IMG/VR virus record: IMGVR_UViG_3300033074_002003 | Direction: 5' to 3' (one strand) | Length of the DNA stretch: 64,000 nucleotides | DNA from: a virus | Shown: positions 5,052 to 56,381 of the stretch, piece by piece | Position numbering within the stretch: the first letter of the stretch is position 1 | How the letters are laid out: each line of letters begins with the position of its first letter | Position numbers and translations under genes: made by a program | Notes under the pieces: model-generated | Told to the model about the DNA's origin: nothing | Seen by the model: the letters and a program-made list of their open reading frames with translations, nothing else | The model's database searches: none

Positions 5052-5822
5052 TCAGCGAAACCTATTTCTCATGATCGAGACAGCCTGTTCGTTGCTATCG
5101 ACCAAGATGCACGTTCGACCCGTATTCAGCGCCGCCTGTCCTGTCGTTCCTGAACCCGCAAAAAAATCTAGGACCGTCCCACCCACCGGGCAAGAGGCTC
5201 TGATCGCTCGCTCAACGAGCTTCACGGGCTTCTGCGTTGGGTAGTGCCCACCGAACTCCCTCTCTTTACTCTGCGTTCCGACAATAGACATCCACCACAC
5301 GTCTGTCGGATTTTTTCCTGCGGCCGCTCGGTCGGCATCTTTCTGCAGTCCGGGCGCCATGTAGGGAATCTTGTCAATGTCATCCCAGTTGAATACGTGC
5401 CCACCGAACGATTTCACGTACACAAGAATGTCATCGTGCTTCCTGGGCCACCGATTTTTCCCGCGCCCGCCGTAATCATAGGCCCAAATCACGTGGTTGA
5501 GGAAGTTGTGTCGACCGAAGATCTCATCGGCGACTGGTTTCACGTCAAACACCGAGTGATAGTCTAGGTGGATGTAGATCGTCCCACTGTCTTTCAATAC
5601 AGCGTGAGCTGCGCTGAGGTAATTTCGAGTGAATTGAACGTAGTCACCCACACTAAATGAGTCACGATAACGAACACCAGCATCCTCCGTAGATTTTTGC
5701 GTGTAACCGCAGTTGAAAGGCGGGTCGACGTAAATCATATCGATCGACTGTTTTGCGCGCGCAGACAGAAATTCCACACAATCACCGTGATGAATCTCTA
5801 GCGGCGAAGCGCCGCCACCCAT
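5052..5822 (-). CDS. beta-class DNA N6-adenine/N4-cytosine methyltransferase with no adjacent restriction enzyme; likely starts at the internal Met (MGGGASPLEIHHGDCVEF) of the longer ORF 5052..6053
   Basis: Motif IV IYVDPPF precedes C-terminal motif I FAGSGTTG (beta-class order); the upstream 77 codons are Arg-rich and overlap the ATP-grasp gene in another frame. Confidence 0.75.
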   Translation of the reverse strand: MGGGASPLEIHHGDCVEFLSARAKQSIDMIYVDPPFNCGYTQKSTEDAGVRYRDSFSVGDYVQFTRNYLSAAHAVLKDSGTIYIHLDYHSVFDVKPVADEIFGRHNFLNHVIWAYDYGGRGKNRWPRKHDDILVYVKSFGGHVFNWDDIDKIPYMAPGLQKDADRAAAGKNPTDVWWMSIVGTQSKEREFGGHYPTQKPVKLVERAIRASCPVGGTVLDFFAGSGTTGQAALNTGRTCILVDSNEQAVSIMRNRFR

Positions 5823-5845
5823 CTCATCTGGCGCTGGGCCTCTTC

Positions 5846-6646
5846 TCACGTGAGCACTTCTTTCCGCAGTGCGACGTACAGATCGAGAGCTTCGTTCATC
5901 GACAGCCCGGACTGTTGGCCGTCGTTCACTTCGACGACGATCCACCCGCCATCTTGCTTCTGTGCCACATCGACAGCAAAGAACGTGACGTGCTGCGCGA
6001 TGATCTCTGCAACAGATGCCAGAAATTCGGGTGGCGGTCGGGACGTGATCCACTCGGGAGGCACGTCTTCACCGTGCGTCGACCAGTAGTATCCCGTCGT
6101 CAGTTCTGTTGTCTTGTAGAAGAACGAGCGATACTCGCGTGTGATCGGGAGCCCGTGATCTGACCTGCAGTGTGTGAGCAGTGGGACGTACTCTCTGATG
6201 TAGATGTCCTGTTCACCCACAAGAGAATCGGCCGTGAGTCGTGAGTGGACTCGCACGGCGTCCTCGAAAGTCTCTGCGTACATGTGAGTGTCCCACAGAA
6301 ATTTCATCGAGTTCGTCGCGCCCTTCAGGACGAAAGGTCCCTTCGCGTCTCTTATATCCTGAAGCCTAAACCACGTCTTTGGCGTGAGGTCGCCGAGAGC
6401 CGTAGACCACTCGCGCATATCTGCACAGAACTGGTGTTCTCTGTATGTGTTTATGAGTGCACCACCGAGAAGTTCTATATCGTTCTCGAATTCCTTGAAG
6501 AAGGGCAGTGCAGAGTAGCGAGGCACGACAAAATCGCCAGGCTGTACGGCTGCGCGCTGGCGAATGACAGTGAATCCCGCCTGCTGCGCGGCCTCCCGTT
6601 CGTGGTCTTCTTCGCGACCCCCTCGCAGTAGCACTACAGTTCTCAC
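5846..6646 (-). CDS. ATP-grasp fold ligase-like protein
   Basis: C-terminal GGWIVVEVNDGQQSG resembles the ATP-grasp C-terminal strand (cf. RimK ..VMEVNASPG); ATGA overlap with glf. Confidence 0.45.
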   Translation of the reverse strand: MRTVVLLRGGREEDHEREAAQQAGFTVIRQRAAVQPGDFVVPRYSALPFFKEFENDIELLGGALINTYREHQFCADMREWSTALGDLTPKTWFRLQDIRDAKGPFVLKGATNSMKFLWDTHMYAETFEDAVRVHSRLTADSLVGEQDIYIREYVPLLTHCRSDHGLPITREYRSFFYKTTELTTGYYWSTHGEDVPPEWITSRPPPEFLASVAEIIAQHVTFFAVDVAQKQDGGWIVVEVNDGQQSGLSMNEALDLYVALRKEVLT

Positions 6647-23188: not shown

Positions 23189-23784
23189 TGTGTTGGCTTT
23201 CTAAAAAGAACGACGGGTTCGCCGCCGATGGGTGCTGATGCCGTCCACGACAGGTTGTTTCCGAGAAATTCGTCTACTGCGGCTTTTACGCCCACCTTGT
23301 CAGTCTTCACTACGGGTGTGGCGCTCTCGATCTGCGAGTGTGTGTCGCGCTCGGAGTAAAAGAGGTCGCGCTCTGACCATTTTCCGAAGTAGTCATCTAC
23401 GATGAGGAGTCCATCGGGACTCAACAGGTCTTTCAAGAGGTCCAGCTCGCGACTCACCGTATAGTAGTTGTGATCGCCGTCGAGGAAGATGAGGTCGAAT
23501 TTCTCTGTGTTCGGTCCGAGAGTCGGCAGGTAATTCAAGCTGTTGTCAACAACGAACTTGAACTTGTCACTATCAAGAAATCCTGTGTACTTCAGGATCA
23601 CTTCAAGTGAGGCATCAAATCGAATATCGACGGACGTCACTTTGAAATCATTCTTCACGCGTGACAGCCAGAAGAGCATCGGAACGAGCGTCTGCCCACG
23701 GTCCACACCGATTTCAAGAATGTTTGGTCTTGAGACTCGTGAGAGAAACTGTTGTGCGACGGGAATGTAACCGTGATGGCTCAT
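23185..23784 (-). CDS. class I SAM-dependent methyltransferase, paralogue of 22409..23188; start at MSHHGYIP gives an ATGA overlap with the upstream gene
   Basis: ILEIGVDRGQT motif I; LIFLDGDHNY parallels LVYVDGDHRY in the paralogue. Confidence 0.65.
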   Translation of the reverse strand: MSHHGYIPVAQQFLSRVSRPNILEIGVDRGQTLVPMLFWLSRVKNDFKVTSVDIRFDASLEVILKYTGFLDSDKFKFVVDNSLNYLPTLGPNTEKFDLIFLDGDHNYYTVSRELDLLKDLLSPDGLLIVDDYFGKWSERDLFYSERDTHSQIESATPVVKTDKVGVKAAVDEFLGNNLSWTASAPIGGEPVVLFRKPTQ

Positions 23785-24050
23785 AGATTTTGCTCTCGCT
23801 TCTCGATTCCAATGATCTCTTGTCGACGAACGCAAAAGAGCAATTCGCCATCAACGGTGATCTGCTGCATGTGTGCAGATTTTGGAACAAAAATGATATC
23901 GTCCTCGATCGGAAGGGCCCCAACACACGAGATGACGCGCATCCTCTTACACGAAGAAGACGATGAATCGATCATGATGAGATCAGAATCAGAGCTCTTC
24001 TCTTCGATCTCTTTCACGAGAATGAAATCGTTCAGCATCTGTACGGGCAT
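23781..24050 (-). CDS. GroES/Cpn10-like co-chaperonin (analogue of T4 gp31)
   Basis: [22 protein letters not shown] aligns to GroES [31 protein letters not shown] ~ [25 protein letters not shown] ~ EEVLIMSESDILAIV; stop/start overlaps on both sides. Confidence 0.5.
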   Translation of the reverse strand: [89 protein letters not shown]

Positions 24051-25990
24051 CAGTGTTCCCTGTCGTTAGTCCAGCCAATGATATCGCGCGGAAGCGATCT
24101 GTTCACAGAAATGTGAGGCGTTGACGTCTTCCCGTCCCACTTCCTGTGCCAAACCCACCCGCCGAGGACACTCTTCATTAGTGCGGCCCTCTCACGAATA
24201 TCTTCGTCAGACACGTCCGACCACTTCTTGTCAAACATGAAGTTATTTTCTGGTGTGTCTGTGACAGTGACGTCAAACAGAGATTTCCAGTGACGAGCCC
24301 AGTACCCGCGGTACGTCTTGATTTTCCTCTCGAGATCCCACCAAGAGAAGTGAAACACGCCTGGGATCTTGTCTACGACGAAGTTGAACCACTGTTCGTA
24401 GTTTGCAAGTGCGCTGGCGTTGCCCATCATTGCAGCGTGCTTCAACCTTTCGATGTCTGGGGTGTAGAAAGACGAAAATGGGATGGGATCACTGGTGACA
24501 GAGTCGATATAATCGCAGCCGTCTGTGCCCTGCGCTGCGTAGGTGTGTCCCAATGAATCGATTCGCCGAAGCGCGCGGGGGATCCCGTGTGTTATCGCGG
24601 GGTCGTTGCGACTGATCCTCCACTTCCACGGGTTGATGTCCAACCTGACTTTTTCGATCCCGCCCCAATATTCGATGACGGGCAGCGCGAGAAGAGCGGC
24701 ATTCGCCGGGAACCTCATGACGAGGTCCTTGATTTTTTCACAGTCGTCTTCGTGGACAACCTCGTCAGAGTCCTGCTGCCAGCAGAAATCTCCCGTGCAC
24801 ATCTTGCGAGCCTCGGCTTTCTGGAGGCCGTCGAACACTGCATGGCGAGGGTGGTCCCAGTCGCGAGTGATCTGCTTGACCTTCAGGCGCTGTGTCACTG
24901 TACCGTCGACGTTTTGCGTCATATAACCGAGAGCCATCTGTTGCAGTCGGCTCCACGTGCTGTCTGTCGATCCGCCGTCCACGACGCAGACCTCATCGCA
25001 GAATGCAAGCATGCTTTCGATGCTTTCGCGAAATGGGTATCCCTGGTCGACGCAGTTGTACGTCGTCGTGTAGCCACTGATCTTCGGGCGATCCAAGTGA
25101 GACTTGGTATCGGCCCAGAACCTGGAGCGGCTGAGAAATAGGTACGATTCGGTGTCGACGCGGTCGGGCGATGTGAACCACTCCTCGGCCGCATGTTCGA
25201 CATTTTCATTGAGGTGCAGCTCACATCCGAGGAGTTTTGCCTCGATCACCATTCGTGGGCATGTATCTCCGCCGAGGGGCAGGTAAACGAATCCTGTGGC
25301 CCGCGCGAGCCTGTCAAGAAGTTCATCGTACGGCAAGTTCCACACGATGTCGTAGTCTTTGCCCGTAGACTTACACCATTCGACCGCCGCGTCGAAACCC
25401 TTCACCCACGACTTCGATCCGAGAACAATCCACTTTCCGTCGCGGGGACTGTCAGCATATTTCTTGTTCAACTGGGCAACCTTGACGAAAAATTGGTCAT
25501 CAAACACCGACGAGAGGACTGTGTTGTTGCACTGCTGGATCTCAGGAATCTTTGCGATGTACCTGCTTCTCTGGCGTTCGGACATCCACCAGATCGACTG
25601 GGCGCCGCAGAAGAACGTCGAAATTAGCTTCCCGTGTGCCTCGTTTTCGCAGTTGCATGGATTTCCTTCGATGGCGGCGTGTTTCTCTGGGGAGCGGTAT
25701 TTGCAGTACTTGTAGTCGTACTCCAGGATTGCGTACTTGATCCCAGAGGAAACGATCACGGGTAGAAGCGAGATGTCCATGCCCGCAAAATTGCCAAAGA
25801 TCCAGAAACGATCTTTTCCCTCTTCAAGGATCGATCTCGTAACACTGGATGACTTCAACTTGAGAAGCGGGAAGGGTGCAGAGTCGATGATCGCCTGCGA
25901 TGTTAGCTCTGCTCCACCGACGTACTCGTCAACGAAGAAGTCAGAAACGAAGACAAATTTGACGTCGGCTTGGATTTGGCCTGGAACCAT
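24050..25990 (-). CDS. two-domain glycosyltransferase (N-terminal GT-B-like plus C-terminal GT2-like); first gene of the leftward operon
   Basis: C-terminal half carries GT2 motifs CVVDGGSTDS and QQDSDEVV; the N-terminal ~300 aa resemble a separate glycosyltransferase domain. Confidence 0.55.
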   Translation of the reverse strand: MVPGQIQADVKFVFVSDFFVDEYVGGAELTSQAIIDSAPFPLLKLKSSSVTRSILEEGKDRFWIFGNFAGMDISLLPVIVSSGIKYAILEYDYKYCKYRSPEKHAAIEGNPCNCENEAHGKLISTFFCGAQSIWWMSERQRSRYIAKIPEIQQCNNTVLSSVFDDQFFVKVAQLNKKYADSPRDGKWIVLGSKSWVKGFDAAVEWCKSTGKDYDIVWNLPYDELLDRLARATGFVYLPLGGDTCPRMVIEAKLLGCELHLNENVEHAAEEWFTSPDRVDTESYLFLSRSRFWADTKSHLDRPKISGYTTTYNCVDQGYPFRESIESMLAFCDEVCVVDGGSTDSTWSRLQQMALGYMTQNVDGTVTQRLKVKQITRDWDHPRHAVFDGLQKAEARKMCTGDFCWQQDSDEVVHEDDCEKIKDLVMRFPANAALLALPVIEYWGGIEKVRLDINPWKWRISRNDPAITHGIPRALRRIDSLGHTYAAQGTDGCDYIDSVTSDPIPFSSFYTPDIERLKHAAMMGNASALANYEQWFNFVVDKIPGVFHFSWWDLERKIKTYRGYWARHWKSLFDVTVTDTPENNFMFDKKWSDVSDEDIRERAALMKSVLGGWVWHRKWDGKTSTPHISVNRSLPRDIIGWTNDREH

Positions 25991-26015
25991 AGCACGATGT
26001 TACAGCATTTGTCCC

Positions 26016-26152
26016 GATCTGTTCATTAAATTTGAACACCTGAGATCTCCCCTTAAATTAAGATCCAGATCAGATCTAGATCATTTAACAGATCGATCTC
26101 TTAACTGGTTAACCACTAGATCAGTTAATAGATCTGGAAGAGATCTAGATCA
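26016..26152. promoter_or_regulatory. GATC-saturated palindromic/iterated strand-switch region (divergent promoter region and/or origin-like element)
   Basis: 12 GATC sites in 137 bp; AGATCT four times; TAGATCA three times; AGATCTAGATCA twice; GGTTAACC palindrome at 26107-26114; lies between divergent operon starts. Confidence 0.6.
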
Positions 26153-26171
26153 GAAAGTGTATGTATCCTGA

Positions 26172-26633
26172 GTGCCTCCCCAAGTACCTCGTCGAGATCC
26201 GCGTGAAGAACCTCTCGAGGGGGAGAGATTTCATACTCCCCTGAGCGGGCAGGTCGGTATTTTTGAGGTTCTCTACTCTATCAAGGCAGAAGTAGGAACC
26301 GTTCACAAGCGCATCGACGAGATGCAACACACGATGACGCGCATAGGCGAGGAATCGTCTGTCAACGGACACAAGCTAACGAACCTCTCAGAGAAGCTCC
26401 TCGAACCAGACGAGGGACTGTTTGCCCGCGTTCGTGATATCGAGCGCAAGATCGAGCTCACCGAGAAGATAACGGAGAAGAAGGGCGACGAGACAGAAGC
26501 CGCTGTCAAACAAGTCGACAAGCTCGTCACGTGGAAAGACACGTGGGGCAAGGTGGGGTGGTACGTCCTCATCGCACTTGTCGGAGTTGTTTTGAAGTAC
26601 ATCTTTGATTTTCTGGTTACAAAGCCTAAGTGA
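26172..26633 (+). CDS. hypothetical coiled-coil protein with C-terminal transmembrane anchor (start may be ATG 26322)
   Basis: C-terminal hydrophobic VGWYVLIALVGVVLKYIFDFLV; the tool's start is GTG; stop overlaps the next gene's start (GTGA). Confidence 0.4.
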   Translation: MPPQVPRRDPREEPLEGERFHTPLSGQVGIFEVLYSIKAEVGTVHKRIDEMQHTMTRIGEESSVNGHKLTNLSEKLLEPDEGLFARVRDIERKIELTEKITEKKGDETEAAVKQVDKLVTWKDTWGKVGWYVLIALVGVVLKYIFDFLVTKPK

Positions 26634-27883
26634 CAGTCGAGATAGTTACGTCTTCTGACATCTCCGGACTTATTTGTGAAGTTGGAGAGCGACTCGAGAA
26701 TTTTTCCTCTCTTGTCGGGAGACTTAGCCCACAGCAGCTGTCTGCCGCGACTCTCGCGTTCCAAGATGGCTCCGAGAAGGTTGTCGCCCAACTGATGTTA
26801 GAGGCGGGATTTCGCGCCGAACGTGTCTGTCCGTACTCAGCTAGGGCTGCAATCCAGCTGGTCCTTGGTCACTCGAGAAAATTCTCTGGTGTACGTTCGG
26901 TGTACACAGCCGAAGGGCTGGAAGAATTCTTGAGTGACGTGACGAGGAAGATAGCACACGTGAGGGGCGCGTCGTTCTTTCCGAATGCGAGCGAATTTTG
27001 GGATGTTGTCTCTTCACACGCGTCTCACCGAGCTCTCGGTGTACTGCGCGACGCAATTTCGCTTGGCGGTTTTGACAGCAGATATGTCATCGAGAGAAGC
27101 AGCTCGCCTAACCCTGATGTCACTGTTGAGACTGTTTTAGGATACAACTTTTCGCTCGATTCGGCGGTGAACATCGATAGTTGGGAAGCTGAGAACGTGT
27201 CTCTTCTCATGGTCGACGGTGTGATCGAGTCTGTCACTGAGATTCATCGCGTCCTGACATTCGCCGCCGAGAAAAAAGTTCCGATTGTCATCGTCGCTCG
27301 TTCGTTTGCCGACGATGTGAGGCAGACGATCGTGACAAATAATGCCCGAAGGTCGTTCTCCGTCCTCCCAATTGTCGTACCAGCTGATGCTAGAAACATC
27401 AATACGATACGAGACATCTCTATCGTGTGTGGATCGAGCGTCGTTTCTTCGATAACTGGTGAGGTGCTGTCCGGAAAAACTGGCGAGTCACTGATCTCTG
27501 TGAACGCGGTGAGATTTTTGCGAGGAAACTTGACGATCGTGGGCGGAGAAAGAACTGCTGCTGCTACAGATGCTCACCGGTGCTCTTTGGTAGAGAGCAG
27601 GCAAGAGGCGCACCACGAGATGTTGCCACACTTTGACTCTCGCATCAAGTCGCTTACGCCGAATCACGTCTTGGTTCGCGTGCCGAGTCGAGGTCTTGAA
27701 GATTCAGGCCTATTTGACGACATCACGGACGTCTTCAGACTTGTGAGAGCAATTCACGAGTATGGTGTGCACATCGATGAAAATGGTGACATCGACGTCA
27801 CGCTCAGAGCGCTGTCGGCGCTTCGATTTGCCAAAGCACAGCTAAAGTTGCTATTTTCGCTCGGAGCGATCGTTGTAAACTAG
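26630..27883 (+). CDS. truncated, degenerate GroEL/Cpn60-like protein (apical plus intermediate domains, reduced equatorial domain)
   Basis: [14 protein letters not shown] ~ GroEL [61 protein letters not shown] ~ [58 protein letters not shown] ~ NKDTTTIIDGVGE; the GDGTTT ATP motif is replaced by QDGSEK; no GGG motif. Confidence 0.5.
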   Translation: [417 protein letters not shown]

Positions 27884-27886
27884 GGC

Positions 27887-28855
27887 TTACTTCGCTGCTG
27901 GTTTGAAGACTTTCAGCGCTTGATCGGGAGACATTTGTAGCTTCTGAAGCGCCGACGCGGCCCAATACAGGGCGCCTCTGGCGTCTCTCTTCTTGAGAGC
28001 CGAGTTCATACCGTTCAGCTGCTGCGCGACAGAGTGCTCTGGATCGCCGCCCTCGTCTCCTGTTTCGATCGGTCCGTCTTCTGGCGTACTCCGTGATGTC
28101 GTTCCTTGTGTGCTCTGCGATTGCCCCGCTTGATCTGCGGGTGCAGCTGCTTCAGGACTGCCCATTGTAGCCGCAACATCTGCCGGAGGGGGCGCCCCCA
28201 CACTGCGAATTTCTTGTGCAAATGCACGGAGCTGCGAAGGCTTGAGATTTGCGAGGTCATTCGCAAACATATCGCCGATCGAACCTTTCAACCCGAGAAG
28301 CTGGCTGAGCTTGCCGCCCGCGAGGCCCGAAAGTGAAGAGGTGTGTCCCGGATCGAAGGCTTTCTTTAGCGCAGCGATGACGTTGCCGCTGGCGGGTCCG
28401 TCCTGATCTGTCAGTGGATCGTCAGTCAATTTCTTTCCCTGCTGGTCGAGAAGCGTTCCGACGAGCTCCATGCCTGAAGACAGAAGTGTCTCAAGGGCCG
28501 CAGCTTTTGCGAGCGGGTTATTTGTCGAGGAGAGCGACCTCTTGAGGCGATCCCACCATCCTGCTCCCTGGTACGCGTTCAGTTCACTGACAACACCCGA
28601 GATCATTTTTGAGATGTTGGGCAACTGTCCGCCCTCACCGCCGAATTTTTCGAGCACAGACTCGAGACGCGAGACAGCTTTTGCAATCTTCTTTGCTTCG
28701 CCGCTGTCGATCTTCTCCTCATAGATCAGAGAGAGCGTCTCGTTCAACATCACCATTCGACCGTCAAACCGCTGGCGTGCCTCTCGCATGACAGTCGCCT
28801 TGGTCACAATCTCGTTCAGTTTGCGTGCGCGGTACGATTCTTCGAGCGTTTTCAT
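27887..28855 (-). CDS. hypothetical protein (coiled-coil N-terminus, G/S/A/P-rich low-complexity C-terminus); the only minus-strand gene in this stretch
   Basis: Long ORF with a consistent frame; no catalytic motifs. Confidence 0.4.
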   Translation of the reverse strand: MKTLEESYRARKLNEIVTKATVMREARQRFDGRMVMLNETLSLIYEEKIDSGEAKKIAKAVSRLESVLEKFGGEGGQLPNISKMISGVVSELNAYQGAGWWDRLKRSLSSTNNPLAKAAALETLLSSGMELVGTLLDQQGKKLTDDPLTDQDGPASGNVIAALKKAFDPGHTSSLSGLAGGKLSQLLGLKGSIGDMFANDLANLKPSQLRAFAQEIRSVGAPPPADVAATMGSPEAAAPADQAGQSQSTQGTTSRSTPEDGPIETGDEGGDPEHSVAQQLNGMNSALKKRDARGALYWAASALQKLQMSPDQALKVFKPAAK

Positions 28856-29208: not shown

Positions 29209-29679
29209 ATGGAAGCACTGAAACATCTCATAGAGTGCAACTGTATCCTCGCACAATTTGCGAAATCGCCCTCGCCGCCCTTTCACAAGTTTGTCGTATT
29301 TTCGCAGGTTGAAGACGACGGTCGCGTACTTGAAAAGCACGCGCAGTGTTCAAACTGCGGAGCAATTCACCGTGTCTACGACGTGTGCAAGAGCGAGGTA
29401 ATACCGAGAAAAGAGAGCTCTGCGATCGTAATGACGATCGATGACGTAAAGCCATCGCTCTCAAAAGACGTCTGCGACCTGCTCGAGAAGAATAACTGCG
29501 ATGTTTCGACGTGGGAGCACGTGCAGTTTATCATCGAGAACCAAAAGTGGGGAGAGCACGTAGTTCTCTCGTCTGAGAAAACAGGTACAGGGAAAGAGGG
29601 CAAGATCCTCAGGATTCTTGGCAACTCACTATTTCGCGTCCAGCCTTTCACGATAACAAATGAGGTAGAAATTGGCTAG
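29209..29679 (+). CDS. hypothetical Cys-rich (possible Zn-binding) protein
   Basis: ECNC and CSNC pairs. Confidence 0.35.
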   Translation: MEALKHLIECNCILAQFAKSPSPPFHKFVVFSQVEDDGRVLEKHAQCSNCGAIHRVYDVCKSEVIPRKESSAIVMTIDDVKPSLSKDVCDLLEKNNCDVSTWEHVQFIIENQKWGEHVVLSSEKTGTGKEGKILRILGNSLFRVQPFTITNEVEIG

Positions 29680-47457: not shown

Positions 47458-48286
47458 GCTCTCAGACGATCTTGTGCACTGTTGGGTCTGTGGCTATAGT
47501 TCGAGGAACCTTGTCCCGCTTCTCAGGAAGTTTGGAAGCCACGATGACCTGAGTTTCTACATCGAGAAGTCTGGGTCATCTCTCACATTTCAGAAGCCCG
47601 CCGAAGACGAAAGCGTTCCACTGAAGTTGCCCGAGGGGTTCAGGTTGATCGCCCCACTCATCGGCCGCGGCGATCGAGACGTTGTTCGTGCGATGCGATA
47701 CCTCAAGGAGCGCGGGCTCACAGCGTCAGACGCGTGGTACTACAAGTTTGGTGTCGCTCCGACGCTCCCAGATCGCGTCATCATGCCCTCATTCGATCAA
47801 GTGGGTGGGCTAAATTTCTGGACGGCCCGTTCGATCGTTGACGCTCGTCCGAAGTACATCGATCCCCCGAAGGAGTGTGTGAGGAAGAATGAGATCATCT
47901 TCAATGAGATCAACATTGACTGGAAGAAGGAGCTTGTCATCGTCGAGGGCCCATTTGACCTGACGAAGTGTCCCACCAATACGACAGCCCTTCGAGGCAA
48001 CCAACTCTCTGAAGAGTCTCGGCTACTTATACAGATCGTGATCCACGAGACTCCTTGTGTCGTGATGCTTGACGACGATGCAACTGATCGCGCCGGGAAA
48101 ATCGTGAGGACATTGGCGTCGTACGGCGTCACTGCAAAGCGCGCTAACCTCGGCGAATTTCACGATCCGGGCGAGATGACGAAGAAACAGGTTGCCGACT
48201 GCGTAAAAGCCGCACGTGAGCTACAATGGGAAGATCACCTCTCCGACAAGCTTTCTAAATTGGATCGCCTTCACCTCTCGTTTTGA
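47309..48286 (+). CDS. DnaG-type DNA primase (Zn ribbon plus TOPRIM), T4 gp61-like
   Basis: CPICLQQ..HCWVCGY zinc ribbon; TOPRIM ELVIVEGPFD and VVMLDDDATDRAG. Confidence 0.7.
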   Translation: MFALSDKVKFIERVFGKGDVTRNLTNIQVTCPICLQQSQKWSQKRKLAVRLSDDLVHCWVCGYSSRNLVPLLRKFGSHDDLSFYIEKSGSSLTFQKPAEDESVPLKLPEGFRLIAPLIGRGDRDVVRAMRYLKERGLTASDAWYYKFGVAPTLPDRVIMPSFDQVGGLNFWTARSIVDARPKYIDPPKECVRKNEIIFNEINIDWKKELVIVEGPFDLTKCPTNTTALRGNQLSEESRLLIQIVIHETPCVVMLDDDATDRAGKIVRTLASYGVTAKRANLGEFHDPGEMTKKQVADCVKAARELQWEDHLSDKLSKLDRLHLSF

Positions 48287-51200
48287 GGCACATGAAAATC
48301 TGTCACATCGCAGACATCCACATCCGTTCGATCAGCAGGCACGATGAGTACCGAACTGTGTTTCAGAGTCTCATCGACGACCTGAAAAAAGATCCCGTTG
48401 ACGTTATCTTTGTCGGGGGCGATGTCTGGCACACGAAAACAGCTGGGCTCACACCTGAGTACATCGACTTCATGCGGTGGTGGCTGACAGAGCTCGCGAA
48501 TTGTGCCGAGCTGTTTGTTACTCTTGGAAATCACGACGGAAATCTCGTCAACACTGACAGGCAGGATGCAGTGTCGCCGATCGTCGCCGCCCTCGCAAAC
48601 CCGCGCGTGAAGCTGTACAAGAAGAGCGGTGTATATGAGTTCAAGAAGGGCTGGAACTTCTGCGTCTACTCGCTATTCGATCGCGAGGGGTGGAAGAATG
48701 TATCACCCGAGAAGGGGAAGATCAACATCGCGTGCTATCACGGCGGTGTCAGGTCTTCTCTGACCGAGACGGGTTGGCCAATCGAAGAGGGCCCGTCTGT
48801 CGACTTCTTCGACGGGTATGACCTTGTCCTCCTCGGTGACATCCATCGCCAGCAGTTTCTCGGCAGCCCGAAGAACGGACAGCCGTGGATCGCGTACCCC
48901 GGAACGCCAGTCTGTCAGAACTACGCAGAGGGCTACCAGAAGCACGGGTACCTAAAATGGGTGCTGAATGATGACGGTGTCGTAAGCTCTGTTGATTTCG
49001 TCGAGCTGAAGCAACCGAACCCGTTCGTGACAGTCGACTGGGAGGGCGATCGAGAGAAGTTCGTCAAAGATATCGAGGAGCTTCCGGAGGCAGCGAGGTT
49101 CCGTGTCAAGAGCTCTGTGTTCGTATCACAGGATGACATGGGTGTCATCTCTGCGACACTGAAGAAGAAGAAATCGGCGATCGAAGTCGTCTTGAAGTCT
49201 GAGGTGACACACAAGAAGGACGTGTTCTCGGCGGGCGGCCTTGAGATGATGCGCGATGACTTGCGCAATGTCGAGGTCCTGACACTTCTCTTGAAGGATT
49301 TCTATCGCGGTATCTCTATCAGCAATTCTGAGTGGGATGACGTCACGAAACTCGTTGAGAAGTACTTGCGATCGGCTTCGAGTGACGACGAGTCACCGCG
49401 ACACGTCAAGTGGAGAATCGGCGAATTCTCGTTCGAGAACCTGTACTCTTACGGGCTCGGCAACAAGATCAACTTTGAGAAGCTGTCTGGTATCGTCGGA
49501 ATTTTCGGACCTAACAGGTCTGGGAAGTCATCGATCGTCGGGACGATGATGTATGGTCTCTTCAACACGACAGATCGCGGGGCGGTCAAAAACCTTCAGA
49601 TCGTAAATGACAGGAAGTCCTCCGGCGAGGCGAAGATCGCACTTCAGGTGGGTGAAGCGAAGTACGTGCTGACGCGTGAGACAAACAAAACAGACACGAA
49701 GAAGGGCATCACAGTCGCGGCCACTTCACTCGATCTGAGGCGTATCGCCGCTGACGGCTCTCTTGTGAACATGAACGGTGAGCAGAGAAATGACACCGAG
49801 AAGACGATCAGGAAGTTGATCGGTACACAGGACGATTTCCTGCTCACGTCAATGTCAACACAGGGTGATCTGAACAAGTTCATCAACGAGGGCTCTGCCT
49901 TCAGGAAACTGATTCTCACGAAGTTCCTCGACCTCGACATCTTTGAGAAGATGCACGAAGCAGCCAAAGCAGAGCTCAAAGCGGCGACAGCGATATCAAA
50001 GACGATCCCAAAGCGTGATTGGCCAGCAGAGCTAAAGAAGATCGACACAAAGCTGTCTAATTTTGATGACTTCGCAGAGAAGATCGAGACAAAGCTGTCT
50101 GAGCTTCGGGCATCGCTGCATACCGCACAGGTGAAGCTCGCGCTGTATAAAAACACCTCAACTGTGTCAGAGGACGAAATTTCTGCCGCAGTAGCTCTTC
50201 TAGAGTCGTACGTTGCTTCTTCTGAAGCGCTCGAAGTGCAGCTCAAGAAGCTTCGCCTCTCGCTGGAAAATGGTCACGATGCCCACGCTCGCGTCCTATC
50301 CCTTCTCGAGAACTACGACGCAGAACAGCTACGAATTGAGCGTGATAACGGCGTAGCACTAAAATCTGCGGCAAAGACGCTTGAGGCACAGCTCACTCGC
50401 GCGAAAGAGGATGTCGAGAGGTTGAAGAGGTCCGCAAAGAAGCTAAGTGTCGTCCCATGCGAAGACAAGTTTCCCACGTGCATGTTCATCAAAGACTCTC
50501 ACGTCGATAGGGGAGAACTACCCGCCGCAGAACAGAATGTCGCCGAACTAGAAAAATCTCTCGAGAGCACAAATTCGGCATTTTCTGACTGGCAGAAGCT
50601 CGATACGGAGAAGAAGTTCGCAGAGCACGCTCGCCTCCTGACAGAAGAGAGGTCACTCGCAAACGCTATCTCGGCGTCAGAGGTGTCGGTCACAAAGACA
50701 GAGAGCCAACTTAGTATTGCGAACGCGAAGCGCGGAGCACAGAAGATCAAGGTCGATGAGCTCGTCGAGGCTGCGGCTCGTGCGGAGAGTGTCGAGGCAC
50801 TTACTCTCCAGAGAGAGTGCGACTCGATCAACGAAGACATCAAGCGTTACGACAAAATGAAAGTCGATGCCGCCACCAGTCGCGGCAAATTTGAGACTGA
50901 GGCGAAGCAGCTGAAGTCACAGCAGTCACAGTACGAAAAAGTTCAGCATGACATTCACGTGACGGAGCTGATCTCAGAGGCTTTCTCGAAGCGCGGAATT
51001 CCCACGAAAATCATCAATTCGCAGCTGCCGGCGATAAACGCTACTGTCGCTGAAATTCTCCATGGCGTTGTGGATTACACGATTGAGTTCGTTGCGGACG
51101 AGGACTCGAACGCCCTTGACGTGATCTTGAACTACGGCGATTCAAAGAGGGTTATCGAGCTCGGATCTGGCATGGAGAAACTATTTGCGTCACTTGCAAT

Positions 51201-51438
51201 CAGGGTGGCACTTCACACGATCACCTCGCTCCCAAAGACCGACATGTTTGTCATTGACGAAGGATTTGGCTCTCTGGACGACCTCAATGTGGAGCCCTGT
51301 AATCGCCTCTTGAGATCGCTGAAGAGGTACTTCGGAACGGTGATTGTCATCACACACGTGGGTGGTATCAAGGATTCTGCCGACACGATCATTGAGATCG
51401 CTCGAGACGGAAAAGACTCGAAGGTGGTCGCAGAATGA
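48283..51438 (+). CDS. single-polypeptide fusion of Mre11/SbcD-like nuclease (T4 gp47-like) and Rad50/SbcC-like ABC ATPase (T4 gp46-like)
   Basis: N-terminal phosphoesterase motifs ICHIADIHI, FVGGDVWH, TLGNHD; Walker A FGPNRSGKSS at ~aa 410; long coiled coil with CEDKFPTC hook-like motif; signature GSGMEK; Walker B MFVIDEGFGSLD; H-loop IVITHV. Confidence 0.75.
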   Translation: MRHMKICHIADIHIRSISRHDEYRTVFQSLIDDLKKDPVDVIFVGGDVWHTKTAGLTPEYIDFMRWWLTELANCAELFVTLGNHDGNLVNTDRQDAVSPIVAALANPRVKLYKKSGVYEFKKGWNFCVYSLFDREGWKNVSPEKGKINIACYHGGVRSSLTETGWPIEEGPSVDFFDGYDLVLLGDIHRQQFLGSPKNGQPWIAYPGTPVCQNYAEGYQKHGYLKWVLNDDGVVSSVDFVELKQPNPFVTVDWEGDREKFVKDIEELPEAARFRVKSSVFVSQDDMGVISATLKKKKSAIEVVLKSEVTHKKDVFSAGGLEMMRDDLRNVEVLTLLLKDFYRGISISNSEWDDVTKLVEKYLRSASSDDESPRHVKWRIGEFSFENLYSYGLGNKINFEKLSGIVGIFGPNRSGKSSIVGTMMYGLFNTTDRGAVKNLQIVNDRKSSGEAKIALQVGEAKYVLTRETNKTDTKKGITVAATSLDLRRIAADGSLVNMNGEQRNDTEKTIRKLIGTQDDFLLTSMSTQGDLNKFINEGSAFRKLILTKFLDLDIFEKMHEAAKAELKAATAISKTIPKRDWPAELKKIDTKLSNFDDFAEKIETKLSELRASLHTAQVKLALYKNTSTVSEDEISAAVALLESYVASSEALEVQLKKLRLSLENGHDAHARVLSLLENYDAEQLRIERDNGVALKSAAKTLEAQLTRAKEDVERLKRSAKKLSVVPCEDKFPTCMFIKDSHVDRGELPAAEQNVAELEKSLESTNSAFSDWQKLDTEKKFAEHARLLTEERSLANAISASEVSVTKTESQLSIANAKRGAQKIKVDELVEAAARAESVEALTLQRECDSINEDIKRYDKMKVDAATSRGKFETEAKQLKSQQSQYEKVQHDIHVTELISEAFSKRGIPTKIINSQLPAINATVAEILHGVVDYTIEFVADEDSNALDVILNYGDSKRVIELGSGMEKLFASLAIRVALHTITSLPKTDMFVIDEGFGSLDDLNVEPCNRLLRSLKRYFGTVIVITHVGGIKDSADTIIEIARDGKDSKVVAE

Positions 51439-51746: not shown

Positions 51747-52139
51747 ATGGAACTCGAAAATGGCCTTGATGTAGATGCTTTGGGACAGGCGACGGACAAC
51801 ACGTTCGGGCGGTCGTCTACAACGGCGTGTGCGACAAACTCTGTAAAAATCAGGCTAGTCGGCGACGGTCTGCTGCAGGTAGATTACCTGTCTTCTGTCA
51901 CGTATGCGTCAGATGCGATGATGCGCGACGTGATGAAGAAGTACGGTGATGAGTCTGATTCTGCGATCAATTCTGCGATGAAGACGGTGAAAGCAGAGTA
52001 CCGCAGGATCTGCGACAAGCAGCTGAAAGCAAAAGCTGTAGGCAATCCCGACTCGTCGATCGAGGCTGTGAACATGTCGTCTCACAGTCCCATCAAGCGT
52101 GGTTTCTACCGGAAGCGCTGTGTGTTTGAGGTGAAGTGA
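51747..52139 (+). CDS. 16: terminase small subunit (T4 gp16-like)
   Basis: Sits immediately upstream of, and ATGA-coupled to, terminase large; N-terminus MELENGLDVDALGQ resembles T4 gp16 MEGLDINKLLDISDL. Confidence 0.5.
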   Translation: MELENGLDVDALGQATDNTFGRSSTTACATNSVKIRLVGDGLLQVDYLSSVTYASDAMMRDVMKKYGDESDSAINSAMKTVKAEYRRICDKQLKAKAVGNPDSSIEAVNMSSHSPIKRGFYRKRCVFEVK

Positions 52140-53806
52140 TGACTGCTCCCAAAGCAGCGGTCTCTACCAAAGAGATCATGCGAAAAGAGCTCATCGCGTG
52201 TGCCGAGAGCCCAGAGTACTTCCTGAAGACATACGCAAAAATCGTTCACCCTACAAGGGGGCGAATTCCATTTAAGACCTACGCATTTCAGGATGACTGT
52301 CTGAAGTCGTTCATGGATCACCGCTTCAATATCGTCCTGAAGTCGCGCCAGCTCGGTCTCTCGACCGTGACAGCGGGATTTGCCACGTGGTACGCTATGT
52401 TCGCGCGCGACAAGACAGTTCTTGTTATCGCGACGAAGCTAGACGTCGCGATGAACTTCATCAAGAAGGTGAAGACGATCCTCTCAAATCTCCCACCATG
52501 GTTCGGCAGCGTCGTCTCTATCAAAGGCGAGACAAAAAAGTCGATCGAGCTTGCGAATGGCTCTACGATCACCGCTATCCCGACTTCCGAAGACGCCGGT
52601 CGTTCAGAAGCGCTGTCACTCCTGATCGTAGATGAGGCGGCAATCATCAAGGACTTCGAAGAGGTATGGACAGGCCTCTATCCGACGATCTCAACGGGAG
52701 GTCGCGCCATCCTGCTCTCTACGCCGAAGGGCGCGATGGGACAGTTCTACGAAATCTGGCAGCAGGCGATAAACGGCGAGAACGATTTCAATGCCACAAA
52801 GTTGATGTGGTACGTGCACCCAGAGCACGACGAAGAGTGGTTCAAAAAAGAGACTCGGGGCTTCTCACCGCGTAAAATCAGCCAGGAATTTTTGTGCGAC
52901 TTCAACGCGTCCGGCGATACTTTCATCACAGTCGATGACATGGAATGGTTGCGCTCGCAAGTCCAAGCGTGTGTGGATCGCTGGGGAGATGACGGGAACG
53001 TGTGGGTGTGGGAGAAGCCGCAGTACGGTGAGAAGTATTGCCTGTCGGGCGACGTGTCTCGAGGCAATGCGGAGGACTTTTCTACATTCCACGTTTTCAA
53101 GATGTCTACAAATGAGCTCGTCGCTGAGTACAAGGGTAAGTTGCCTCCTGATGAATTCGGCATGCTCATCAACGACATCGGCAAGAGGTACAATACCGCG
53201 CTAGTGTGTCCAGAGAACAACACGTTCGGATACTCTACGATCAGAGCACTGAAGACCGCGGGATACAAGAACCTCTACTACGAGGGTAGGCGACCAGGCT
53301 ACGTTCCGTATGACGAGAAAGAGATGGCGGGATTCTCGACGCAGAAAAATACGCGTGAGAAGATTCTAACCAACCTAGAGAGAGCCATCAGAAACAAGAC
53401 GATCAAGCTTCGCTCTGAGAGGTTGTACCTAGAGCTGAAGACATTCGTATGGATTGGCCAACGTGCCCGGGCACAGGACGGAAATCACGATGACCTCGTG
53501 ATGAGTGCAGCCATCGGTGCTTACCTTCTGGATCCGAACGGTGGGGCTGTTGACAATGGTGATGCTGCTGGCTTGCTCGGTGCAATGTCCGTGTCGTCTC
53601 GCGACGCGGGTGAGATTTCTGGCATGGGCAGGGATATCACCGCGCTTACGAATCCCAACATGATGGTCGCTGCAACGAACCGGGTCGCGATGCGACCCAT
53701 CATGGGATCTGAGACGATCGGAGTACAGGAGCAGCTGCGCAACATGGGATTTGGGGCGCGAGATCAGAGCCTTAGCGATTTTTCGTGGGTGCTCAAGGGA
53801 CGCTGA
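52136..53806 (+). CDS. 17: terminase large subunit (T4 gp17-like ATPase/nuclease)
   Basis: KSRQLGLSTVTAGF ~ gp17 SRQLGKTTVVAIF; ELANGSTITA ~ ELDNGSSIGA; LLIVDEAAII Walker B; HDDLVMSAAIGAYL ~ gp17 HDDLVMSLVIFGWL. Confidence 0.9.
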   Translation: MMTAPKAAVSTKEIMRKELIACAESPEYFLKTYAKIVHPTRGRIPFKTYAFQDDCLKSFMDHRFNIVLKSRQLGLSTVTAGFATWYAMFARDKTVLVIATKLDVAMNFIKKVKTILSNLPPWFGSVVSIKGETKKSIELANGSTITAIPTSEDAGRSEALSLLIVDEAAIIKDFEEVWTGLYPTISTGGRAILLSTPKGAMGQFYEIWQQAINGENDFNATKLMWYVHPEHDEEWFKKETRGFSPRKISQEFLCDFNASGDTFITVDDMEWLRSQVQACVDRWGDDGNVWVWEKPQYGEKYCLSGDVSRGNAEDFSTFHVFKMSTNELVAEYKGKLPPDEFGMLINDIGKRYNTALVCPENNTFGYSTIRALKTAGYKNLYYEGRRPGYVPYDEKEMAGFSTQKNTREKILTNLERAIRNKTIKLRSERLYLELKTFVWIGQRARAQDGNHDDLVMSAAIGAYLLDPNGGAVDNGDAAGLLGAMSVSSRDAGEISGMGRDITALTNPNMMVAATNRVAMRPIMGSETIGVQEQLRNMGFGARDQSLSDFSWVLKGR

Positions 53807-54312: not shown

Positions 54313-54356
54313 TTCAGACTTTAAGGGCGGTGCGACAATGGCACGCTGGAGCGAAT

Positions 54357-56381
54357 ATGTCAACAAGGCAACGTGAGACTCTTTTTCGCAGGCTTACCAA
54401 ACTTTTCAAGTCTGGGCCCGTAGTAAAGAGAAAGGTAAAGCAGCAAGATACGAGGCAGGCGGGGCCCGATCCCGATAAGTCGTCAGCTGTTCTAACGTTC
54501 CAGAAGTCATATTCGCCCATCTACAACACGATCGTCAGTAATGCGTTCAACCTTTCAGAAAGGCTAGCGCGATACCAAGATTTCAACTCGATGGAAATGA
54601 CGCCGGAAATTTCCAAGGCGCTAGACCTCTACGCCGACGAAAGTGTGGCCCAAGACGATGTGGGACGTACACTTCACATCTACTCCGACAACCCGAAGGT
54701 GAAAGGTCTACTTGAGGAGCTCTTCTACGATACGCTGAACGTTGAATTCAACCTCAGACCGTGGGTGCGGAACCTGGTTAAATACGGCGACCTGTTCCTC
54801 TTTAACGACGTGCATCCCAGGTTTGGCCTGATCAACGTGATCCCGATCCCTGTGAATGAGCTCGAGCGCGAAGAGGGATTTGACAGGGAAGATCCAACAG
54901 CGGTCAGGTTTCGCTGGACGACGATGAACAACAACCTGCTCGAGAACTGGCAGGTGACACACATCAGGCTCATGAGCAATGACATGTTCTTGCCTTACGG
55001 TACGAGCATGATCGAGTCAGCAAGGAAGATCTGGCGACAGCTGATGCTCATCGAGGACGCGATGCTCGTATATCGCGTCGTCCGTGCACCCGAGCGTCGA
55101 GTCTTCTACATTGACGTCGGAAATACGCCAAATGATGAGGTGCCAAACCTCATGGAACAGGCGAGAATGAAACTTCGCACGTCACAGGTGATAGACCAGT
55201 CGACATCACGTGTAGATGTCAGATACAATCCCCTGAGCGTTGATGAGGATTATTTCATACCTCGGCGCGGAGCTGAGGGTGGAACAAAGATCGAGACGCT
55301 GGCGGGCGGGCAGAACACCGCTGCTGTCGAGGACGTTCAGTACATTCAGAGGAAGCTCTTCGCAGCACTGGGAATCCCAAAGGCGTACCTAGGCTACGAC
55401 GAGATGCTCTCCAGCAAGGCGACACTCGCTCAGGAGGACATTAGATTTTCGCGCACAGTGAACATGATCCAGCGCACTCTGATCTCAGAGCTCAACAAGA
55501 TGGCGATCATTCACCTTGCCGCGCACGGGTTTGACGGTGAAGACCTGCTGAACTTCCGACTTCACCTCTCAAATCCTTCTACAGTTGCTCAACAGCAGAA
55601 GCTTGAGCTCTACCGGACGAAGTTTGAGATTGCCGCTGCTGGACAGCAGGTCGAGAACCTCGTCGACATGCAGTTCCTCAGAAAGAAGATTTTGGGCCTC
55701 ACTGACGAAGAGATCGATGAGATCAAGTCTGGACAGCTTACTGACGCAGAGTTCCTTGCGGGTGTAGAAGCTGGCGGCGAGGGTGGTGGAGGCGGAGGTC
55801 TTGGTGGGGGAGGCGGCGGAGGTGGAGGCGGGGGTCCATTTGGCGATGAAGACGCTCCCGACGAAGAGGGTGCCGACACCGAAGATGAACCAGAGAAAGA
55901 AGAGGGTGACGATGTCGAACCGGGCGTCGAGCTCATCAGAAGCGGTGACGATGATAGTGGAAGCGGAAAACCGCTGAAAATCTCGATCGCCGACCCGTCA
56001 GCACCACTGAAGACAAAGGCTACCGTGTTGGGTGCGGCTCTTACGAAGAGGCGTCGCAAGAAGCACCATGGCAATGAGATCGAGCAGAGACCCGATTTCT
56101 TGAGGATGACGTCGATGAAGGGTCACAGAGACGACGATCCTTTCGATATGTCATGGATCAAGACATCCGCACGCAACCCACTGGGCGAGGGCCTCGCTCC
56201 GACCCTGAGCTGGAACCTCAGCTCAATGATCGATCGCATGGCGAAGAAGATCGGAATACGCCGCGGGTACACCGCGTCGCCAGTTCCTGCGAATATCCTC
56301 TCAGAGGGCGTTGAAGACGTTGAAATCGATATCAACATTGATGGCGAAGAACAAGACGATAGTTATGACGGAGACACCTGA
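54357..56381 (+). CDS. 20: portal vertex protein (T4 gp20-like) with a ~150-aa C-terminal poly-Gly/acidic extension
   Basis: LDLYADESVAQDD ~ gp20 VSEIVSDAIVYEDD; GGAG RBS 6 nt before ATG 54357; GGEGGGGGGLGGGGGGGGGGGPFGDEDAPDEEGADTEDEPEKEEGDD at aa ~473-520. Confidence 0.8.
   Translation: MSTRQRETLFRRLTKLFKSGPVVKRKVKQQDTRQAGPDPDKSSAVLTFQKSYSPIYNTIVSNAFNLSERLARYQDFNSMEMTPEISKALDLYADESVAQDDVGRTLHIYSDNPKVKGLLEELFYDTLNVEFNLRPWVRNLVKYGDLFLFNDVHPRFGLINVIPIPVNELEREEGFDREDPTAVRFRWTTMNNNLLENWQVTHIRLMSNDMFLPYGTSMIESARKIWRQLMLIEDAMLVYRVVRAPERRVFYIDVGNTPNDEVPNLMEQARMKLRTSQVIDQSTSRVDVRYNPLSVDEDYFIPRRGAEGGTKIETLAGGQNTAAVEDVQYIQRKLFAALGIPKAYLGYDEMLSSKATLAQEDIRFSRTVNMIQRTLISELNKMAIIHLAAHGFDGEDLLNFRLHLSNPSTVAQQQKLELYRTKFEIAAAGQQVENLVDMQFLRKKILGLTDEEIDEIKSGQLTDAEFLAGVEAGGEGGGGGGLGGGGGGGGGGGPFGDEDAPDEEGADTEDEPEKEEGDDVEPGVELIRSGDDDSGSGKPLKISIADPSAPLKTKATVLGAALTKRRRKKHHGNEIEQRPDFLRMTSMKGHRDDDPFDMSWIKTSARNPLGEGLAPTLSWNLSSMIDRMAKKIGIRRGYTASPVPANILSEGVEDVEIDINIDGEEQDDSYDGDT

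Follow-up and report, generated by a model that had tools for sequence, protein, structure and literature searches.

A dense GATC array at a divergent gene junction of a putative T4-like jumbo phage and its relatives

Dense GATC clusters and closely packed short repeats are features of several well-described control regions. The replication origin oriC contains 11 GATC in 245 bp, the packaging site pac of phage P1 contains 7 in 162 bp, and the known Dam-controlled promoters (e.g., Mu mom, P1 cre, IS10 pIN, pap, and agn43) contain 2-3. In the omega heptads of pSM19035, the ParR/parC iterons, and the MetJ met-boxes, direct or inverted units of 5-8 bp are packed over a promoter region. T4-like phages replicate mostly by recombination and do not conserve their origins, and T4 packages its DNA by the headful without a fixed pac site. 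Here, an array of 12 GATC is described from the virus record IMGVR_UViG_3300033074_002003, of which a stretch of 64,000 nucleotides (the window) was analysed. The array lies in a gap of 181 bp (25991-26171) that reaches from the ATG of a glycosyltransferase gene on the minus strand to the GTG of the gene at 26172, which is exactly the point where, according to the original prediction, a leftward glycan operon and a rightward block of genes diverge. Its existence is confirmed, its density far exceeds what chance would give, and related phages retain it.

The array (26016-26151) was delimited by direct count and randomisation. Its GATC tetranucleotides start at 26016, 26044, 26062, 26068, 26073, 26079, 26091, 26095, 26119, 26131, 26142, and 26148, and span 136 bp; ten of them are preceded by A and six are followed by T. 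The clustering claimed in the original prediction is borne out, since 12 sites were reached in none of 300 dinucleotide shuffles (maximum 8) and in none of 2000 random placements of the 543 sites of the window (maximum 10). Nor is GATC equally dense elsewhere: the second-ranked 150-bp window in the 64 kb contains six sites, and the other intergenic regions contain at most three each and no AGATCT. Across the window, GATC occurs approximately once per 118 bp, 2.2 times the mononucleotide expectation, and matches the trinucleotide composition (Markov observed/expected ratio of 0.96). The expectation for the gap is 0.6 sites from local base composition (181 bp), in agreement with the earlier estimate of about 0.5, and approximately 1.2-1.5 from genome density, against which that estimate is too low. 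The gap also contains AGATCT four times (26043, 26072, 26130, and 26141), TAGATCA three times (26077, 26117, and 26146), the 12-mer AGATCTAGATCA twice (26072 and 26141), with no further copy in the window, and the palindrome GGTTAACC (26107), a single occurrence in the window. All of these had been reported, while the reported TTAA-N2-3-AGATC units proved to be spaced as TTAA-N0-2-GATC (TTAAGATC, TTAACAGATC, and TTAATAGATC, with GATCTCTTAA on the other strand).

Seven of the 25 TTAA copies in the window fall in the gap. Window-wide, TTAA is 7.8-fold below its mononucleotide expectation (Markov observed/expected ratio of 0.71), TATA (38) and ATAT (98) are scarce as well, and GGATCC (9) and ATGCAT (3) are low in comparison with CGATCG (72).

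By a strand-symmetric 7-mer score, the array is the most repeat-dense 150 bp of the 64 kb (score 30, runner-up 16), and intergenic gaps that are longer (237-401 bp) lack comparable repeats. According to nearest-neighbour energies, it is also the least stable duplex of the window at lengths of both 100 and 150 bp (-1.18 kcal/mol per step against a window mean of -1.45, more than 4 standard deviations away). As single-stranded DNA, the gap folds better than its shuffles (z = -3.4) because the GATC cores are self-complementary. A search of both strands of the gap against Rfam returned sub-threshold miRNA-precursor matches only, which are due to the dyad symmetry, and a known RNA was rejected, as no Rfam family matched.

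Within the gap, direct and inverted units are interleaved. Four contiguous AGATCN units (AGATCC AGATC AGATCT AGATCA) on the plus strand at 26061-26083 constitute the first copy of a direct repeat, revealed by repeat search and by the sequence itself, whose second copy at 26130-26152 is 83% identical. The repeat search further found two 16-bp units of the form GATC-N8-GATC with a central TTAA, GATCATTTAACAGATC at 26079-26094 and GATCAGTTAATAGATC at 26119-26134, which share 89% identity within a 19-nt repeat; the second also forms an inverted pair with 26095-26107. The first contributes the left half of a 20-bp near-palindrome (TTAACAGATC/GATCTCTTAA, 26085-26104), and the GGTTAACC palindrome (26107-26114) holds the sole GTTAAC of the 64 kb. 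To the left, an inverted repeat TGTTCA-N7-TGAACA (26020-26038) contains TAAATTTG (26027-26034) and forms a hairpin in the DNA fold; its TTAAATTTGAAC block recurs in the relative L110. No strand is assigned to the array as a whole, the 16-bp units, the GGTTAACC palindrome, or the inverted repeat.

The array is kept by the relatives of the phage; its absence from them would have spoken against the original prediction. Among metagenome contigs, 12 distinct ones carry a gap identical to that of the window. A sister lineage (L017, L020, L108, and L109) is 89% identical in the 417-aa protein encoded to the right of the junction (P0002) and 91% identical in the glycosyltransferase (P0005), and all 12 GATC cores are retained in L017, L020, and L109. 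In the L017/L109 lineage, the array has undergone about 10 changes (substitutions or indels), every one of which lies between GATC cores and none inside; by our own estimate, in which GATC makes up a third of the positions, the chance that all of these changes spare the cores is about 0.015. As the 12 cores survive in L017 while the intervening bases change, selection on the GATC cores is supported. Several GATC of L017 and L023 have lost their A/T flanks but not the tetranucleotide, so that the conserved unit in the L017 lineage appears to be the tetranucleotide itself.

Full-length homologues of the glycosyltransferase number more than 2200 (55-64% identity) and come from a very diverse aquatic phage family; in the relatives examined, the glycosyltransferase gene diverges from a gene of about 150 aa followed by a GroEL-like gene. 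The comparison was extended to 80 further loci from viral contigs (GC content of 30-61%), assigned to clades by a neighbour-joining tree of the glycosyltransferase. Across the loci, the 330 bp ahead of the glycosyltransferase gene contain between 0 and 12 GATC. Arrays are found in a first clade with the window, L017, L023, L024, L110, and L111, in a second in which 11 of 11 members have at least four GATC, in a third (L100, L078, and L090), and in three isolated lineages; together, these span GC contents of 33-61%. At 14 loci of the array clades A-C, the density of GATC is 22.6 per kb in the junction, compared with 7.5 per kb for the remaining non-coding DNA and 7.7 per kb for coding sequence. 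When words at 77 orthologous junctions were compared with dinucleotide shuffles, AGATC (218 vs 66, z = 15), GATCTA (96 vs 20), and AGATCT (69 vs 16) were among the most enriched, as were TCTAGA/ATCTAG. The flanks of GATC are strand-symmetric: A precedes 114 of 202 sites (56%), T follows 116 of 202 (57%), and TA stands before 53 and after 49. The site preferred across the family thus appears to be the palindrome TA-GATC-TA, and the symmetry of its flanks points to a palindromic double-stranded site, unlike a strand-specific RNA signal. High-GC relatives (L028, L033, L049, L100, L055, L025, L083, L032, L044, and L080) have two further conserved junction boxes that are not present in the window, GATACTTA in mid-gap and TTAACGCG some 20 nt before the start codon of the rightward gene.

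The GATC array seems to be the version, in the clade of the window, of a previously undescribed repeat junction that is family-wide. Although the junction makes up about 4% of the locus, it holds the highest repeat score of the whole locus in 32 of 67 relatives (48%). Sister clades have unrelated tandem repeats without GATC at the same place, and tandem periods among the relatives range from 5 to 33 bp: (TTAGTATTCTAGATC) is present seven or more times in L090 with a 15-bp period, 16-17-mers headed by GATCTTAA three times in L111, (TAATTGTATC) ten times in L085 along with a 33-bp period repeated three times, (TAAGA) 14 times in L099, (TCAGTA) 10 times in L097, (CTAATCTA) five times in L087, (TCTCTTAA) four times in L095, and (AGATCTCT) four times in L078. 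Since direct tandem arrays such as (TAAGA)14 and (TCAGTA)10 have no hairpin capacity, a family-wide role at the level of RNA structure is unlikely. Copy number varies (GATAA at least 11 times in L098 and 8 times in L099), and at least 10 contigs stop inside the junction (L018, L019, L029, L089, L090, L094, L098, L108, L110, and L111), within tandem repeats or at strain-variable points through which other contigs pass. Physical genome ends were rejected on these grounds; the junction appears to be a locus of variable repeat number at which assemblies break systematically.

A predicted promoter of the leftward operon (P_L) adjoins the array. On the minus strand, a -35 hexamer TGAACA (26025-26020, identified by word enrichment and anchored alignment) is followed by a 17-nt spacer, a -10 hexamer TAACAT (26002-25997, identified in the sequence), 6 nt, and the ATG (25990). 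The first GATC (26016-26019) lies inside the spacer and touches the -35 box, and the other 11 lie upstream of P_L. The arrangement TGAACA-N16-18-TAnnAT precedes the orthologous glycosyltransferase gene in at least 15 diverse relatives (including L028, L025, L032, L033, L044, L055, L080, L083, and L023), and TGAACA, a single-copy box, occurs 43 times in the 77 junctions against 9.8 expected, an approximately fourfold enrichment. By virtue of this conservation, P_L is well supported as a putative sigma-70-type promoter of the glycan operon. In many relatives, the promoter is followed by a GAGGTG ribosome-binding leader; in the window, as the -10 hexamer ends 6 nt from the ATG, P_L would imply a leaderless or near-leaderless mRNA. 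L044, L083, and L065 resemble the window in this short distance (6-9 nt over the four), with the same implication for their mRNA. A likeness of the TGTTCAC box to the type-I iterons of phage P4 was set aside: its fixed distance of 16-18 nt to the -10 hexamer suggests that the box acts as a -35 element.

For the rightward genes, a pattern search gave a candidate promoter P_R on the plus strand (26032-26059), TTGAAC (26032-26037)-N16-TAAATT (26054-26059), with a predicted start near 26066. The right arm of the inverted repeat belongs to its TTGAAC, and TGTTCA-N7-TGAACA can be read as the back-to-back -35-like boxes of both divergent promoters. The arrangement recurs in L017 and L110 (N17 in both), and L023, L024, L087, and L082 have TTGTAC-N16-19-TAnnAT followed by the repeat array of the respective lineage. 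We infer P_R from these patterns only; if it is real, most of the array would lie in or just past the transcribed leader.

We favour, with a probability of roughly 0.4, the reading that the array binds protein as double-stranded DNA and controls both divergent early promoters. It would act in cis through dense, short, GATC-cored repeats with the family preference TA-GATC-TA, placed immediately upstream of the conserved P_L and over or just downstream of the candidate P_R. A dimeric or oligomerising DNA-binding factor, either of the phage or of the host, might coat the close-set sites cooperatively and, once bound, determine how strongly or when the two divergent early units are transcribed, in the manner of an operator or an enhancer-like element. 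The different tandem repeats of sister clades might then reflect the co-evolution of the binder with its sites. A cooperative binding array seems to fit best, given how tightly the sites are packed, their palindromic preference, the lack of a second such array in the 64 kb, and the way in which other short repeats take their place in other lineages. As in short-repeat operators and centromeres, contiguous direct and inverted units extend from 26061-26083 on to 26152 beside a conserved promoter. From these sequence patterns, we infer protein binding, the nature of the binder, the effect on transcription, and any role that adenine methylation at GATC may have.

Several observations weigh against a protein-binding array. 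Among the neighbouring conserved genes, no sequence-specific DNA-binding protein was recognised, and the neighbouring small open reading frames (ORFs) gave no ribbon-helix-helix or helix-turn-helix family at E-values up to 1, which leaves room for a binder of novel fold. A stricter consensus scan left P_R, a weak consensus match, below threshold. Perfect tandem arrays of 5-8 bp (up to 14 copies) in the relatives are unusual for operators, and could just as well be slippage-prone DNA, an unwinding element, or iterons. That the array is the least stable duplex and unique in the 64 kb is, in both respects, what an origin would predict, and the retention of the bare GATC in L017 and L023 points to a reader or writer of methylation, not to a longer palindrome.

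The main rival is that the junction is a replication origin, either as an early promoter firing into easily unwound repeats, in the manner of T4 oriF and oriG, or as a set of iterons for a phage initiator; we regard this as somewhat unlikely. By analogy with oriC, P1 oriR, and the iterons of Vibrio chromosome 2, its GATC cores might in addition gate re-initiation via methylation. Besides its uniqueness and low stability, such an origin would account for the position between divergent transcription units, for the GATC density above that of oriC, and for the candidate P_R that stands directly upstream of the array in the window, L017, L110, L023, L024, L087, and L082 (in the window, the weak consensus match leads into the least stable 100 bp of the 64 kb). 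The lineage-specific direct repeats with periods of 10-33 bp (L090, L111, and L085) resemble iterons that co-evolve with an initiator, yet the window itself has no regular iteron ladder: its repeats are 5-6-bp cores and 2+2 copies of 19-23-nt units (83-89% identity). Cumulative GC skew turns from falling to rising at the junction, but gene orientation switches at the same point, and the skew is about zero, not negative, over the 15 kb to the left. No replication or initiator domain was found in the adjacent genes, whose products are the glycosyltransferase, the GroEL-like protein, an XhlA-like membrane protein, and proteins without an assigned function, and the recombination-based replication and non-conserved origins of T4-like phages speak against a conserved origin as well. 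An origin of the oriC type in particular fails. No DnaA box (TTWTNCACA) is present in 25991-26171 at up to one mismatch, and the window-wide number is that of chance (66 vs 65 expected). The 13-mer consensus GATCTNTTNTTTT has one match in the gap at two mismatches (26016), and its 23 matches in the window against 17.8 expected are also at chance level; the resemblance of GATCTGTTC and GATCTCTTA to the oriC 13-mer was dropped for this reason.

A bolder form of this proposal, unlikely as a whole, is that the repeat junction could be the replication-control or bidirectional-switch locus of a large aquatic family of T4-like jumbo phages, possibly the moraphages. Its lineage-specific iterons would co-evolve with their binder, and in several clades, by convergence or by retention, they would be GATC-cored and gated by adenine methylation, a logic like that of oriC and SeqA but without DnaA boxes or a Dam-family enzyme.

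Quite unlikely, in our view, is a methylation switch of the Dam type, in which the state of GATC (fully methylated, hemimethylated, or unmethylated) times the divergent promoters via a methylation-sensitive factor. Several observations would suit it: the tetranucleotide is kept while its flanks drift, the first GATC stands in the spacer beside the -35 box of a conserved promoter, and arrays are found in three separate clades, and in three isolated lineages besides, over a wide range of GC content. The absence of genome-wide GATC avoidance (Markov ratio as above) fits GATC that is protected or harmless, and the phage encodes a methyltransferase of N6-adenine type. The original prediction was right that the phage has its own DNA methyltransferase, but the coordinates given (5052..5822) were wrong, and the enzyme is not of the Dam family. 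The ORF is at 5052-6053 on the minus strand (333 aa to the first start) and belongs to the beta class of PF01555, with adenine or N4-cytosine as the target. Its best solved relatives are 8urk/9c3u, CcrM, and M.RsrI, and its best matches are enzymes with other targets than GATC (CcrM, GANTC; M.RsrI, GAATTC; YhdJ-type). The match of the GATC enzyme DpnA is weak and partial (1.7e-6 over a stretch of 59 residues), that of the Dam family PF02086 has no significant stretch, and a search of viral contigs with the methyltransferase returned no close relative.

Other points also argue against a Dam-type switch. The repeats that sister clades have in this position are free of GATC, so that GATC methylation cannot be a family-wide principle, although it may play a role within the GATC clades. 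SeqA is known only from some Gammaproteobacteria, and the known Dam-controlled promoters have far fewer GATC than the 12 found here. Clades that have arrays do not differ from those that lack them in the genome-wide observed/expected ratio of GATC (0.93 vs 0.92), and GATC usage was therefore dropped as a signal of restriction or methylation. Of the Dam- and origin-type interpretation proposed originally, the non-random cluster, its position at the divergence point, and its selection stand, whereas the link to Dam and the oriC/SeqA type are not supported.

The repeats might also be a by-product of a permissive gap that gathers repeats by slippage or recombination, with the GATC units amplified by chance. 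The perfect micro- and minisatellites of the relatives, the varying copy number of GATAA, and the many assemblies that break at the junction are compatible with this. In addition, a scan of the viral collection found dense GATC quartets in at least 120 unrelated contigs, including giant-virus bins, with the glycosyltransferase gene in none of the matches listed, and such quartets appear not to be specific to this phage family. Yet the longer gaps of the window have remained free of such repeats, the window array is not a simple tandem expansion, and GATC enrichment persists across clades whose intergenic DNA cannot be aligned. Neutral slippage is contradicted by the recurrence of the junction as the repeat maximum (48% of the relatives against about 4% expected) and by the conservation of the cores through about 10 intervening changes, which makes a mere by-product very unlikely.

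A P1-type pac site, at which clustered, methylation-regulated GATC hexamers direct terminase cleavage, is extremely improbable: the GATC density is like that of P1 pac and the contigs of several relatives end in the junction, but these ends are assembly breaks that other contigs read through, TGATCA does not occur in the gap and TGATCG is found at none of the 12 GATC sites, the large terminase gene (52136-53806) is 26 kb away, and terminase, portal, and capsid match T4-type families, so that the earlier suggestion of a packaging origin is not upheld. Smaller candidates were rejected as well. A CtrA-type TTAA-N7-TTAA is not present, as the TTAA start-to-start spacings are 5, 8, 16, and 27. TTAA is not the core of a late promoter, since the motif TAGTTA[AT] is not found in the gap, and CAGTTAAT (26121), 43 nt from the start codon, differs from it. 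The cyanobacterial HIP1 palindrome GCGATCGC has no copy in the window, which therefore gives no signal of a cyanobacterial host.

The window itself appears to derive from a distant, uncultured T4-like jumbo phage. T4-type genes encode a gp23-type capsid (61723-63630), a gp20-type portal (54330-56381), and the large terminase, and the nearest cultured capsids are 36-50% identical. The assignment to jumbo phages is based on a contig of 305,889 bp, the longest that carries the same 417-aa protein. Neither megablast of 24000-28000 nor tblastn of the glycosyltransferase against GenBank phages gave a match, so that no cultured relative is at hand, and a viral-contig search with the 417-aa protein returned no relative. 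Moraphages, described in 2025 (PMC12619734), are aquatic jumbo phages whose genomes reach 307 kb and encode chaperones, Hc1, and a core set of four glycosyltransferases. The window phage resembles them in size, glycosyltransferases, chaperones, and Hc1, a suggestive likeness by description alone. Neither a replication origin nor methyltransferases are mentioned in PMC12619734, according to a term search.

To the left of the junction, an operon of about 25 kb runs uninterrupted through about 31 genes (325-25990), whose products include glycosyltransferases, methyltransferases, sugar dehydratases, aminotransferases, and a GroES-like protein. Its first gene (24050-25990, minus strand) encodes a 646-aa family-2 glycosyltransferase (Glycos_transf_2, from the ORF table and Pfam), which lacks the N-terminal FDF motif present in most homologues. 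In the relatives, genes of homing-endonuclease type (GIY-YIG or Endonuclease_7) interrupt the glycan operon at varied points (L017 4913-5641; L020 790-1518; L023 8940-9638; L024 10420-10890; L025 9841-10212); the window copy is without them. The first rightward gene (26172-26633, plus strand) encodes a 153-aa coiled-coil protein with a C-terminal transmembrane helix, weakly XhlA-like, and its orthologues (141-185 aa) hold the same position in L023-L025. The second (26630-27883, plus strand) encodes the 417-aa protein, a divergent GroEL-like protein according to PHROG and NCBIfam GroEL matches. It matches the central part of GroEL only, and the most remote homologue found carries PF00118. The GroES-like protein (89 aa, 23781-24050, minus strand) is encoded across the junction from it.

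Farther to the right, genes for ClpP, a histone-H1-like Hc1 protein, and PIN-PhoH are followed by structural genes. Hc1 (PF07432, 30621-30869, plus strand) is also present in L023 and L024. A conserved 156-aa protein (29209-29679, plus strand) with CxC...CxxC cysteines and no family match, whose gene lies some 3 kb away from the junction in every relative examined, is possibly a zinc ribbon and could be a candidate regulator. An ORF of 1051 aa (48283-51438, plus strand) combines a calcineurin-like phosphoesterase (Mre11/gp47-like) with SMC/AAA_23 (Rad50/gp46-like), which are two separate genes in T4. The motif TAGTTA[AT] occurs only four times in the 64 kb, both strands counted (51723, 53807, 56360, and 59881), each time 18-19 nt ahead of an ATG of the rightward structural module (51747, 53832, 56385, and 59906), and CATAGTAAA (61690) lies 27 nt upstream of the capsid gene; TAGTTA[AT] looks like a late-promoter motif, the counterpart of TATAAATA in T4.

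Little is known about the layout of early transcription and replication in uncultured jumbo phages, and the junction offers a conserved, easily spotted landmark in a family with thousands of metagenomic members, at the head of a 25-kb glycan-biosynthesis operon. If the array is an operator or an origin, it would provide a handle on the cognate DNA-binding protein via co-variation across clades, a test case for methylation-dependent control beyond the enterobacterial Dam/SeqA system, and a reason for the frequent assembly breaks. If it is slippage-prone DNA only, it could still be used as a strain-typing marker.

Among the described systems, P1 pac shares with the array the clustering of short repeats with GATC within some 150 bp of phage DNA, and differs in its TGATCA/G hexamer, in the distance of the array from the terminase gene, and in the T4-type packaging genes found here. 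The Dam-controlled promoters likewise have GATC in or beside promoter elements, as well as an adenine methyltransferase of the phage as a parallel. Their GATC lie in a defined regulator site, whereas no such site could be delimited for the 12 spread over 136 bp here, the methyltransferase is of the beta class, and no reader of the OxyR, Lrp, or SeqA type can be assigned. With oriC, P1 oriR, and the chromosome-2 iterons of V. cholerae, the array has in common dense GATC in AT-rich, meltable, non-coding DNA between divergent genes, with cores that are kept and flanks that vary. Here, however, DnaA boxes and an adjacent initiator gene are missing, the 13-mer is at chance level, the window yielded no methyltransferase of the Dam family, and the density is about twice that of oriC. 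The T4 origins oriF (uvsY) and oriG (gene 34) and the iterons of oriE are similar in the T4-like background, the candidate promoter leading into the least stable duplex, and the direct repeats of the relatives, but the promoter here is sigma-70-like, not of the MotA type, and T4 origins have no GATC arrays. The omega, ParR, and MetJ arrays correspond to it in the packing of short direct and inverted units over a promoter region, the palindromic preference, and the lineage-specific sequence; unlike them, it has no recognised gene for a cognate small DNA-binding protein nearby, its core is a methylatable GATC, and it belongs to what appears to be a lytic T4-like jumbo phage, not a plasmid. While the array fails the defining tests of an oriC-type origin and a P1-type pac site, and probably is not a classical Dam-controlled promoter, its logic is like that of the known GATC clusters and of operator and iteron arrays.

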